Of a DNA stretch of 64,000 nt, positions 42,956-45,488 are shown piece by piece. This DNA comes from Armatimonadota bacterium. GTDB lineage: Bacteria; Armatimonadota; HRBIN16. Location of the stretch: assembly GCA_963677485.1 (NCBI GenBank), contig OY781964.1, positions 2,464,001-2,528,000 on the forward strand. The letters run 5' to 3'. The notes beneath the pieces are model-generated. The model was given only the letters and a program-made list of their open reading frames with translations. It had not been told where the DNA came from and searched no databases. The stretch's first letter is position 1; every line of letters starts with the position of its first letter. Made by a program: the position numbers and the translations under genes.

Positions 42956-43288
42956 ATGATGCCGGATTACATTCCATACATGATTGCACTGTTCATCTGC
43001 TGTGCTCAGGCAGGGTTTCAAACTAACCATGTGTTCCCACTTAGTCGCGCTATGATGGGGATCAAAGAGACCAAGTACCGCAGCAAGTATACGGTGCATC
43101 AACGGCTCACCATATCGTCGGCTTATCAAGTGATCCGGGCAGGTTGCTTGATACTGGCAATGGGGTGCATCAACACCTGGGCAGTGGGCATTCCTATCAT
43201 GGTGGTCGGGCTCATACTAATCGTGTTGGGCTGCCGGATGCAATCTATACTAAAGAAGCGGTTTGGAAGGGTAGACCACGATGCTTGA
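42956..43288 (+). CDS. Small hypothetical membrane protein
   Basis: 110 aa with hydrophobic segments; GAGGTG RBS; overlaps the next ORF. Confidence 0.6.
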   Translation: MMPDYIPYMIALFICCAQAGFQTNHVFPLSRAMMGIKETKYRSKYTVHQRLTISSAYQVIRAGCLILAMGCINTWAVGIPIMVVGLILIVLGCRMQSILKKRFGRVDHDA

Positions 43289-43511
43289 CAGTGCAAACCA
43301 TAATATTGCCGTCGCCTCTCTTATTGCGGTGGCTGTCTACCTCATATATCTGGTGCGTTCTGGGATGTGGCGTGATATCATTGCGCCGCAGAACATGGAA
43401 CGCAGCCACAGGTCTCTGGCATCCACCATCGTCGCCACCGCGGTCTTTGGTATCGCCGCTGTGGTCATCATGTATTTTGGTGCCAATAGTATCTTACCAA
43501 CCATATTTTGA
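43281..43511 (+). pseudogene. 5' part of a small membrane-protein gene, probably interrupted by the adjacent element
   Basis: Two TM segments; same frame as the TM-containing segment resuming at 45141. Confidence 0.5.
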
Positions 43512-45143
43512 ACACGGTGTATAGAATATTCTGATATTACGCACCACACAAAGCGTTAGGCACAACGATCTGGCGAATAGCAAGTGCTGCCATGATGATA
43601 CGCTTGCCAAGTGCAGTGAGGTAGTATTTGTAGCGTTTACCGCATTTTTTAACGAGCCGGAATACTCGGCATCGCTTGATGAAGTATGATATCTGAGAGC
43701 TGGACATCTGCGGTAAGGCTTTTTGAAGCATACGGTTTGTGATCCCGCTGATGCATCCCTCTCCGCGAGCAAGTGCAATGAGACATTCCAAATCCTTCTT
43801 GAGGAAAAGGTTGAATCCTCGATACGAGCGATGATCACGGGTGGTCGAGGTCGCGATTTTGATGATCTGATGTTCACCATCGCTGTTGTCATCAAGGGCG
43901 GAAAGAAAGTCAAGATATCTGTTGTTTGCAGATAATAACAGTTCCCTCAATGGAGGAAGGCTGTAGATGGTCTTTTGCATAGGGGCGTATTTAATCTCAG
44001 TCGTCCCATCATGATGTTCTACCTCACGGTAGTGTTTAAATTCAGAGACGTCATTCACAGTCGTCTCGATACGCAAGATTATCCCTTGCTTGTCATACAT
44101 TTTGATAGAAGCCCATCCCATGTAGTGTTTGATGCGCGTGCCTTGTATGCGGCGATCGAACTTGTAGTCAGTGCCGATCTCAGCGAGTGTTCGCCCATCA
44201 AGTTTCTTACCAAGAAACATCGCGATAGACTCTGGCGTTACCGTATGTATCGCTGTTTTGACTAGATTATCGTAGATGGCTTTGAGGTCTTCGGCGCGTT
44301 TGAACACGATGTCTGTAGCATATTCCACCTGCATTAGCGACCAATGATATGAATTGTCAGCAAGCCGTATCACGGGGCAATACATTCTGGCAAATGCATC
44401 CAGCGCATGGTGCAGCTTATCAGCAGGAAAAGCGTCTGCCAGCCTCTGAGCACAGCTAAAGTCGTCGATTTTTACAAAGGCGTTGTCCAGTGGAGTGAAA
44501 ACTACTCCCTCGGATTGAAGGCAATGCGCGAGATAATTGTGTCCATTACAATAGAATTGCAGACGGAAGGGCACCCAGGTCGGAACTCGTAGATAGCACA
44601 GTCCAAACTCTGCATCGATGAAATAGAAGTAGTAATGAAGACACTTGGTCTCCTTGATATTCAGCCGGGTTTTGTGGGTAATCTTGTCGTGCCACGGGGT
44701 GTATGCAGGACATTTTTCCAACACTGAGAATATGTGGACGAGACCGGGGTGACACCCTCGACTACTAATGATCTCTTTGATGCGGTCTTCTTTTCGAAAT
44801 GAAGAGGCACGGCGTATATACTCAATTTCAATGCTGTTGGTAACGGCAAGGCGTTCCGCATTGGCTTTGATCTCATCTCGTAGAGGTTCGGCAAATTCCT
44901 TAGGAAAGTCAAATAGCCTGATGTTGCGTTGATGAAGATAGATGCCCATTCCGTCGCTATGACACCAGCCTGGGATTGTACCGGTGATAACTATGCGGTC
45001 GAAGCATGAATATACCCCAGCTATCTGCTTTGCATAGCGTTCTTGAAGTGATGTCATTCTGGGCAACCTCACGAAAGGGTGTTTGAATGTATATTACGTG
45101 GCGAATGCAATCATTCCTTTTTTGGTTGCGGCTAAGCCGCCTT
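43494..45143 (-). mobile_element. Putative insertion element without terminal inverted repeats (~1.65 kb)
   Basis: Lower GC than flanks; single large ORF; subterminal hairpin GCGGC-TAA-GCCGC at 45128-45140; CTTA at both junctions; flanks rejoin into a plausible ORF; exact ends uncertain by a few bp. Confidence 0.6.
43537..45072 (-). CDS. Putative transposase/replication-initiator-like protein with C-terminal winged HTH
   Basis: 511 aa (ATG at 45057 likely); CFDRIVITGT, QVEYATD, IKMYDKQG..LRIETT; wHTH GITNRMLQ...YKYYLTALG. Confidence 0.7.
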   Translation of the reverse strand: MRLPRMTSLQERYAKQIAGVYSCFDRIVITGTIPGWCHSDGMGIYLHQRNIRLFDFPKEFAEPLRDEIKANAERLAVTNSIEIEYIRRASSFRKEDRIKEIISSRGCHPGLVHIFSVLEKCPAYTPWHDKITHKTRLNIKETKCLHYYFYFIDAEFGLCYLRVPTWVPFRLQFYCNGHNYLAHCLQSEGVVFTPLDNAFVKIDDFSCAQRLADAFPADKLHHALDAFARMYCPVIRLADNSYHWSLMQVEYATDIVFKRAEDLKAIYDNLVKTAIHTVTPESIAMFLGKKLDGRTLAEIGTDYKFDRRIQGTRIKHYMGWASIKMYDKQGIILRIETTVNDVSEFKHYREVEHHDGTTEIKYAPMQKTIYSLPPLRELLLSANNRYLDFLSALDDNSDGEHQIIKIATSTTRDHRSYRGFNLFLKKDLECLIALARGEGCISGITNRMLQKALPQMSSSQISYFIKRCRVFRLVKKCGKRYKYYLTALGKRIIMAALAIRQIVVPNALCGA

Positions 45144-45287
45144 AGGGTATTCAGTGGTTTGGTTGTCGCCTTGGCGTTGGTCTGGCTGGTTGTGGAGGTG
45201 TCGCCTGGCACATTGCTGAACCCCGCGAAGAAGCTGGATGAAGCAGAGCATCCGACTGGCGACGATGCATCGCCGAACGCCGATTAG
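45141..45287 (+). pseudogene. 3' part of the interrupted membrane-protein gene
   Basis: LRVFSGLVVALALVWLVVEV TM plus an acidic tail, in frame with 43281. Confidence 0.45.
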
Positions 45288-45399
45288 ATGGCAGGATACG
45301 CAAGCAACGGAAGTGAACAGTAGAAGGTAATCGTGACAGAACCACGGGTTGCGCTGACGTTGACCCGTCGCAGCGAGGCTGGTGGTTTGTATCTGAGGT

Positions 45400-45488
45400 G
45401 ATCAGCCACGTTGCCGCGGGTTTTGTCACCCCGTAAACGGGGTTCCCTCACCGCGCGTCTAGTGTGCAAGCTGCCCGCAAGCGGGCGC
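45400..45488. repeat. Solo partial copy of the ~214 bp unit
   Basis: gttgccgcgggttttgtcaccccgtaaacggggttccctcaccgcgcgtctag..gcccgcaagcgggcg. Confidence 0.85.

Follow-up and report, generated by a model that had tools for sequence, protein, structure and literature searches.

The locus and its copies in the source genome

The 64,000-nucleotide stretch of DNA analyzed here (positions 2,464,001 to 2,528,000 of contig OY781964.1, assembly GCA_963677485.1, from an Armatimonadota bacterium of the lineage HRBIN16), referred to below as the window, carries a block of about 1.65 kb with a GC content of 0.45–0.48, compared with 0.52–0.62 in the DNA around it. The block contains a single long open reading frame (ORF) on the reverse strand (43537..45072), which would encode 511 residues from a GTG codon or 506 residues from the ATG at 45057 that is used by its homologs. 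A promoter/terminator scan detected no promoter-like site upstream of the gene within the block. In a preliminary description of the window, made from the sequence alone, this lower-GC block with its one ORF of ~510 codons was proposed to be a mobile element of rolling-circle type, and both the composition and the coding content given there hold.

Searching the source genome, a single contig of 5.22 Mb, with the block by blastn revealed 22 full-length copies at unrelated sites, all of which share a segment of exactly 1660 bp (43487..45146 in the window, reverse strand) that has TAG at its window-left and TAGG at its window-right end; the ORF is the only one in this unit and fills 92% of it. 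Nineteen of the copies are identical, two have one mismatch, and in the last there are 12 mismatches and a gap of one base. No partial copies were found by blastn in the source genome, and the search of that genome likewise yielded no solo ends and no miniature or gene-less derivatives. Unitig depth in two sequencing runs is ~9–20-fold greater inside the repeat than in its flanks. Of 201 same-phylum genomes, 12 contain the repeat, often in fragmentary form. It was not found in the two same-genus genomes or in the other 15 same-family genomes that were searched, and the gene is not a syntenic component of these chromosomes. Given its copy number and sequence identity, together with its patchy presence in the phylum, the block therefore represents an insertion sequence (IS) that was acquired horizontally and has expanded recently, and that is both real and active, as its proposed mobility had implied.

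Ends, target and empty sites

As the preliminary description had stated, the element lacks terminal inverted repeats (TIRs), since none of the nine inverted pairs detected between 43470 and 45165 links the two ends. What is repeated at the junctions in the window is the word TAG (43487–43489 and 45143–45145), and in window orientation all 22 copies start with TAG and end with TTAGG, preceded by T in 18 copies and by A in the remaining four, and never followed by C. Read in the orientation of the gene, every copy lies between CCT and A (22/22), the next base being A in 18 and T in four, and the flanks outside CCTA(A/T) differ from copy to copy with no conventional target duplication. The word CTTA, which had earlier been noted at both junctions, is indeed present at 43493 and 45141, but the left occurrence lies inside the element and the repeated junction word is TAG.

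The extent of the insertion is defined by two empty sites. Intact copies of the repeat that has been invaded by the source-genome copy at 824515–826173 read ...GAGTA-TAGG-TGTTT..., and the occupied site reads GAGTA/TAG-TATC...CCT-TAGG/TGTTT (window orientation; slashes mark the outer flanks). In the second case, another copy interrupts a gene of which a genome of the same genus (G001) contains an uninterrupted ortholog, and this ortholog has the exact length of the source-genome flanks plus one TAGG. Both sites show that TAGG has gained a net 1656 bp, with TAG left on either side, in place of the 1647 bp that had originally been assumed. In gene orientation, the target is thus CCT↓A(A/T) and the occupied site CCT↓AAGGCGGC...GATACT↓A(A/T), where arrows denote junctions. 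The CCT upstream of the 5′ junction CCT↓AAG (45144..45146, reverse strand) is target-derived; it is present in all 22 copies and is kept as a single copy in the empty sites.

If both cuts are made at CT↓A, the mobile unit corresponds to 43488..45143 (1656 bp, reverse strand). This placement within the common CTA appears likely because the base after ACT varies among relatives of the element (see below) and because CT′AA is the conserved nick site of MOBT relaxases, identical to the double-strand origin sequence of Rep_trans initiators (PMC9371924). One source-genome copy, at 4184648 (locus L021:1500–1503), has TAA for TAG at its window-left junction, so that its proposed 3′ nick site reads ATT↓A and not ACT↓A; in all other positions it agrees with the consensus.

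The DDE insertion sequence IS5 inserts at YTAR. A 4-bp duplication of an IS5-like YTAR target was considered and rejected for the present element, as the left junctions are ATAG in four of the 22 copies, all right junctions are TTAG and the empty site has a single ATAGG.

Conserved ends across relatives

The 5′ end of the element (gene orientation) carries a subterminal hairpin, GCGGC-TTA-GCCGC (45128..45140, reverse strand; GCGGC-TAA-GCCGC as it was first read on the forward strand), located 3 nt inside the junction and 71 nt upstream of the ATG. It is followed by the box AACCAAAAAAGG (45116..45127, reverse strand), for which the family consensus is AACCAAACAGG. The 3′ end is marked by a terminal box, GGTAAGATACT (43488..43498, reverse strand; consensus GTAAG-R-N-ACT), that ends at the proposed 3′ cut, and by an inverted repeat, AATAT-caga-ATATT (43525..43538, reverse strand), which overlaps the stop codon and may be the counterpart of a 3′ hairpin seen in many relatives. 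When folded as single sequences, both ends perform no better than shuffled DNA (z −0.8 for the hairpin in the window), and the significance of the hairpin lies in its conservation among relatives.

Relatives were examined at 80 loci encoding proteins with 50–59% identity to the query, using a strict pattern that consists of a CCTAA-like word, a perfect stem of 4–6 bp and AACCA. A 5′ end composed of CCT↓AAC, a GC hairpin and AACCA is widespread among them, the hairpin being found at 76 of the 80 loci and at 67 of these by the strict pattern. The non-strict cases comprise seven perfect hairpins with a variant or contig-truncated flank and two with one stem mismatch; of the remaining loci, three run into a contig end within 85 nt and one has nothing recognizable. 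The 5′ ends were aligned as 57 distinct sequences, including six that had missed the strict pattern, and 50 of the 57 rows were preselected for a perfect stem. In this alignment A27, C28 and C29 of the box are invariant and the adjacent columns at least 90% conserved, and both outer stem pairs are intact in every row (13–25, CG 52, UA 3 and GC 2; 14–24, CG 50 and UA 7). The stem shows 12 double changes, a number reached in none of 500 shuffles, and sliding the partner strand abolishes the pairing. The hairpin is conserved upstream of homologs, as had been anticipated, and shows compensatory changes there. Its loop is often G-N-A closed by C-G, a combination known to form very stable DNA mini-hairpins.

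Boundaries deduced from repeated copies in six other genomes are (C)CCT↓AAC... and ...ACT↓AA. At the 3′ side, TA[AG][GA]...CT was detected by a strict pattern at 61 of 75 evaluable loci, ending in ACT at 57 of the 61, and the two bases that follow CT are AA at 48 and others at 13. Since CT is fixed and the bases after it vary, the border between element and flank lies directly after CT. A perfect subterminal stem of at least 5 bp occurs at the 3′ end of 21 of 48 relatives, compared with 19% of shuffles; these stems align poorly, and RNAalifold returned no consensus pairs for the 48 3′ ends. The copy on plasmid pOLGA1 of Paraburkholderia phytofirmans OLGA172 has the same end architecture. Two further candidate structures, base-pairing of the 3′ GTAAGG box with the 5′ junction and a GGG-ACTAA-CCC mini-hairpin at the joined ends, were discarded because no covariation was apparent by eye.

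Several arrangements of copies in other genomes were also recorded. At one locus (L077:150–215), a member begins exactly behind the 3′ ACT of a related copy (...GGTAAGGGACT↓AACCCGGC...), a head-to-tail junction that would be expected if the 3′ ACT↓AA is itself usable as a target or nick site. Short tandem CCTAAT or ACCTAA-like runs abut the element in the 3′ flank of locus L097 and in the 5′ flanks of loci L053–L055; they might mark favored targets or be scars left by repeated nicking. The duplication in a seventh genome (L098/L100) is larger, reaching ~40 nt outside the 5′ junction and 1.4 kb or more beyond the 3′ end (ACT↓AG). It is either a segmental duplication or the result of reading through a weak 3′ end, with flanking DNA carried along.

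The 506-residue protein and its family

The gene for the putative transposase (43537..45057, reverse strand) encodes a protein in which a proposed catalytic region of ~400 residues precedes a C-terminal MarR-like winged-helix domain (approximately residues 430–500; 43558..43770, reverse strand). The protein has no match to Pfam (E up to 1), to NCBIfam or PHROG families or to sequences in the PDB, its sole NCBIfam hit, to a heme-degrading-protein model, being at chance level (E 0.11). The absence of a recognizable DDE or HUH enzyme, as previously claimed, is in accordance with these searches. The winged helix that had been proposed to be fused to the enzyme is visible at the C-terminus, if weakly, with 11 of 67 members matching PF25213 and a MarR chain matching at E 0.017 over profile positions 456–500.

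Homologs are extremely numerous. An exhaustive search detected 6552 clusters at 50% identity, 3173 of them at E ≤1e-10 and 658 at E ≤1e-30, and in a word-indexed search 7998 of 8000 candidates scored at E ≤0.001. A second subfamily of ~535 residues, 19–22% identical to the first, appears equally large, as all 8000 of its candidates scored, and the ESM Atlas returned only unnamed clusters belonging to the family itself. Most homologs reside on contigs of 1.6–2.5 kb in thousands of assemblies; contigs are of element size because the repeat breaks metagenome assemblies. Genome records with the family come from Acidobacteriota, Chloroflexota, Nitrospirota, Planctomycetota, Desulfobacterota-type lineages, Gammaproteobacteria and Bacteroidales, from Firmicutes (Pelotomaculum and Hydrogenispora), Actinomycetes, Spirochaetota and Parcubacteria, and from two archaeal metagenome-assembled genomes (ANME-2 and Bathyarchaeia-type). 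Several host genomes carry three to seven copies, and members are also found on plasmids of cultured Paraburkholderia, Burkholderia, Rhodococcus and Mycobacterium.

Databases name members of the family as hypothetical proteins or as regulators of the MarR, ArsR or PadR families (MarR in RefSeq), never as transposases. Taken at face value, these names would make the protein a MarR/ArsR-type regulator carried by a repeat that some other enzyme moves, and the C-terminal winged helix is what such a regulator would contain. Against this, the gene is the sole ORF of a 1660-bp unit that it nearly fills, ~400 conserved residues lie beyond the winged helix, homologs sit on element-sized contigs in thousands of assemblies, and the source genome contains neither solo ends nor derivatives without the gene. 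A role restricted to regulation is thus very improbable.

Among 79 sequences representing both subfamilies, 14 columns are invariant: D20, R21, G105, Y143, Y145, G152, P163, N171, N192, E245, K319, Y321, R329 and E331. The proposed catalytic tyrosine, Y321, is located in the motif K-M-Y-D-K (codon 44095..44097, reverse strand).

Mode of transposition

The element resembles transposons that move as single strands because its ends are asymmetric, one of them bears a covarying hairpin, a fixed word is found at the cuts and in the target, and insertion occurs with no duplication. Whatever the fold of the enzyme, movement by single-strand nicking and joining at CT↓A is considered likely. Two other modes of movement, both of them improbable, would account for some of the same observations.

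The first is a double-strand transposase of unrecognized type, for example a cryptic DDE enzyme, that would excise or copy the element and insert it at TAGG, with a 3-bp staggered cut duplicating TAG. Both junctions have TAG and the empty sites have it once, which is formally a 3-bp duplication, and the family possesses three invariant acidic residues (D20, E245 and E331). Such an enzyme would nonetheless have to act on two quite unlike ends that lack TIRs, and no model of a DDE or other transposase is matched at E up to 1. The covariation of the hairpin stem is not needed for a double-strand binding site, and the shared word can shrink to two bases in relatives, where CT is fixed and the base after ACT varies. 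In addition, the fixed G that follows the right TAG in all copies is unexplained by pure duplication of TAG.

The second is a novel site-specific recombinase, in which a double-stranded circle with the junction ACT-AAC would recombine with CCTAA via a short identical core, in the manner of IS607 or tyrosine-recombinase elements. The presence of the same CTA(A) core at the element junction and in the target, the lack of duplication beyond that core and the DNA-binding winged helix are all compatible with this mechanism. It is disfavored by the lack of a match to any serine- or tyrosine-recombinase model, and by asymmetric ends of which only one has a covarying hairpin, with a GNA-type triloop in many members.

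Possible relationship to Rep_trans initiators

As set out in PMC5714925, Rep_trans proteins share motifs N′ (D), I (RxD), II (T/SxY/ExG), III (YxKxxE) and IV (W/LxRxE), and have an active site with three acidic metal ligands and the catalytic tyrosine on a beta strand. In the IS family, the residues D20, Q-x-E245-x-A-x-D, K319-x-Y321-x-K323 and L-R329-x-E331 can be assigned, in that order, to motifs N′, I, III and IV. The assignment of QVEYATD, KMYDK and LRIE as Rep_trans motifs, first made on inspection of the single protein, is upheld to the extent that E245, K319, Y321, R329 and E331 are invariant and follow the published order, but homology is not established thereby. The DNA ends may offer a parallel, in that the junctions of the IS and its target, CCT↓AA and ACT↓AA, adjoin a GC hairpin, with the word outside the hairpin loop.

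Profile comparison was carried out with hhalign against an alignment built from 62 Rep_trans proteins, and it is only suggestive of homology. The family profile obtained a score of 29.8 (P 0.0062, probability 6%), which rose to 31.2 (P 0.0044, probability 7.8%, 106 columns) when the second subfamily was added, and the alignment is then co-linear from the NG strand to KMYDK, which falls on RIYDK. A hand-cut segment reached P 1.6e-4 and a probability of 50%, and the extended alignment sets LRIE on IRVE; a reversed profile, used as a control, scores 15. A regular expression combining motifs I, III and IV recognizes 54 of the 62 Rep_trans proteins and, among the 79 family sequences, 35 in its strict and 52 in its loose form, whereas it is found in none of 2792 other source-genome ORFs of at least 250 residues and in none of 30 DUF7845 proteins.

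A substantial number of observations weigh against the Rep_trans relationship. The preliminary description had expected a relation to PF02486, and this was not borne out at the level of the profile: the model matches neither the protein nor its 67 relatives nor anything in the source genome, although it is positive in three of 61 same-phylum genomes and in the Bacillus subtilis control, and no Rep_trans chain emerged from a profile search of PDB sequences. In hhalign, the best of 40 block shuffles scored 27.7 against 29.0 for the real profile, a narrow margin, and the alignment itself sets motif I two residues off the QxEYATD register and leaves D20 unpaired with motif N′. The motif expression was composed after both families had been inspected. 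Motif II is not recognizable in the family and neither is the E of motif III, motif I has E in place of D, and the spacing from Y to E is 10 residues as opposed to 18 in the Rep_trans alignment (A3). The nick at Rep_trans origins is made in a hairpin loop, whereas the proposed cut word of the IS lies 3 nt outside the hairpin. Finally, eight invariant residues (R21, G105, Y143, Y145, G152, P163, N171 and N192) have no role in the scheme.

These points raise the alternative that the same single-strand nicking at CT↓A is performed by a tyrosine enzyme of unrelated fold, its likeness to Rep_trans being due to convergence or chance. The lack of a match to PF02486 at the HMM level, the hhalign probabilities of 6–8%, the scores of the shuffles and the unexplained invariant residues, which include Y143 and Y145 in an HYYFYF stretch, would all be expected in that event. 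Convergence or chance would on the other hand have to produce four catalytic-type residues in the order found in Rep_trans, the common [RK]-x-Y-x-K and R-x-E strands, a composite motif encountered in no other large ORF of the source genome and an identical four-base nick word, and an unrelated fold is accordingly rated as unlikely. Descent of the catalytic domain from a common ancestor with Rep_trans is, on the strength of these sequence comparisons, favored by slightly better than even chances.

Proposed mechanism

Taking these observations together, the element is an IS of a large unclassified family that is probably moved, in a single-strand mode, by a tyrosine nicking-joining enzyme of the Rep_trans/MOBT type. 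In the proposed mechanism, the 506-residue protein would be that enzyme, with an active site formed by D20, E245, K319-x-Y321-x-K323 and R329-x-E331 and built as in Rep_trans/MOBT proteins, and its C-terminal winged helix would anchor it on the end of the IS. One strand would be nicked at CT↓AA beside the 5′ hairpin, the enzyme becoming attached via Y321 to the 5′ phosphate. Displacement of the strand would follow, probably with the aid of host replication, such that the donor copy stays in place, and a second cut-and-join reaction at the 3′ ACT↓A would generate a single-stranded circle with the junction ACT-AAC. Insertion of the circle at a CCT↓AA site would proceed by the reverse reaction.

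The orientation of the copies lends no support to this scheme. Relative to replication (hand count; origin at ~2.15 Mb and terminus at ~4.75 Mb), they are distributed 15:7, which is not significant; any tendency would put the gene-sense strand on the template of the leading strand, in contrast to IS608-type elements. Neither the circle junction nor the empty-site joint was seen in Logan contigs of four runs (X4, X5, X6 and X8), a result that carries no weight either way since rare forms are invisible in contigs.

The interrupted host ORF and neighboring repeats

In the window, the IS has inserted into a host ORF on the forward strand. The 5′ piece of this ORF (43281..43487, 69 codons) and the 3′ piece (45144..45287; AGG, 46 codons and stop) are in the same frame, which continues once 1656 bp are removed and then reads ...YFGAN-R-VFSGLVV.... 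The in-frame disruption described previously is therefore correct, and an open frame is restored, but it encodes ~116 residues, not the ~119 calculated for an excision of 1647 bp. No intact relative of the ORF was found in 40 related genomes, either as a DNA match or with the 69-residue N-terminal piece (0/40), so that the anticipated empty-site allele of this membrane-protein gene was not recovered, the two empty sites described above belonging to other copies.

Short dispersed repeats of ~40–140 bp, unrelated to the IS, are present in dozens of copies in the source genome and in the same-genus genome G001. One such repeat lies in the window at 45363–45446 and others are located in the flanks of further IS copies.

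Novelty and significance

To our knowledge, the single-strand and rolling-circle transposons described thus far all use HUH enzymes. In the abstract of the Replitron preprint, IS200/IS605, IS91/ISCR and Helitrons are given as the three known groups of Rep-mobilized elements. No paper on a Rep_trans-type transposon was found in the literature searched, most subscription journals being outside its coverage, and the family may already have a name, ISfinder not having been compared. What the analysis delineates is a family of hairpin-ended insertion sequences of single-strand type with a different enzyme. The chances are about equal that it represents a new catalytic class of transposase, in which a Rep_trans-like tyrosine nuclease of TATA-binding protein (TBP) fold, joined to a winged helix, drives a very widespread IS superfamily through single-strand moves between CT↓AA sites, as judged from sequence. 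The annotation of its members as hypothetical proteins or MarR/ArsR regulators would explain why the superfamily has escaped notice.

Should this prove correct, the family would stand to Rep_trans as IS91, IS200/IS605 and Helitrons stand to HUH Rep proteins, and would constitute a second, independent recruitment of a replication-initiator family for transposition, tying pT181-type plasmids, CTX-type phages and the relaxases from integrative and conjugative elements (ICEs) to a transposon lineage. Thousands of proteins now listed in databases as regulators or hypothetical proteins would be transposases, and the element would supply a compact system of one protein, a defined 5-base target and a hairpin as recognition site. 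Since cultured bacteria contain copies, for instance on pOLGA1 in P. phytofirmans OLGA172, the idea can be tested directly.

Comparison with known systems

Two groups of conventional insertion sequences were considered and rejected. A DDE insertion sequence is disfavored by the absence of a DDE model and of TIRs and by a shared word of only three bases within a fixed target, and an IS110-type (DEDD) element by the lack of a Pfam match and by flanks that vary among the 22 copies past CCTA(A/T).

The IS200/IS605 family (IS608 and ISDra2) shares with the present element the lack of inverted ends and of target duplication, insertion 3′ of a short fixed word that subsequently flanks the left end, and subterminal hairpins, with the left cut upstream of the left hairpin and the right cut downstream of the right one; the counterpart of the 3′ hairpin is weakly supported in the IS family. 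It differs in its TnpA protein of ~150 residues, compared with 506 here, where there is no HUH motif (the HYY stretch has an H that varies within the family) and no Y1_Tnp match, and in that the present element has no second gene of the TnpB type and no strong lagging-strand orientation bias. Elements of the IS91/ISCR group, as portrayed in PMC5714925, likewise contain a single long gene for the transposase, lack TIRs and duplication, abut a tetranucleotide target at one end and have distinct origin and terminus ends. The present family is set apart from them by the lack of an HUH/Y2 domain, by another target word and by an origin end that consists of a hairpin plus AACCA.

An analogy in domain organization is provided by Rep-Arvir (DUF7845, PF25227), which, according to PMC13107129, combines an N-terminal catalytic domain (~300 residues) with a MarR-like winged helix and whose relation to Rep_trans is visible by structure only. 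The overall size is comparable (486–715 residues in Rep-Arvir). Rep-Arvir proteins are, in contrast, encoded by viruses and plasmids and not by IS-sized repeats, and their tyrosine motif is KHYYM. The IS protein has no match to PF25227, and hhalign against 30 DUF7845 proteins aligned only the winged helix (score 19.1, P 0.25); a comparison of Rep_trans with DUF7845 is equally blank (score 15.4), in agreement with PMC13107129. DUF7845 genes were additionally observed at eight and five places in single archaeal genomes (G403 and G543, respectively), some of them broken, which are copy numbers above expectation for a plasmid or provirus replication gene.

The Rep_trans/MOBT proteins, exemplified by pT181 RepC/RepD, NicK of ICEBs1 and RelSt3 of ICESt3, differ from the present system in that the IS protein has ~130 additional residues separating the first acidic motif from the second and is encoded by a 1.66-kb chromosomal insertion sequence instead of a plasmid, phage or conjugative element. 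The apparent resemblance to them extends to the proposed CT↓AA cut word beside a GC-rich hairpin, to the succession of an acidic N′ residue, [RQ]-x-[DE]-x-A-x-D, [RK]-x-Y-x-K and R-x-E, and to the fusion of a helix-turn-helix-type DNA-binding domain to the catalytic part.

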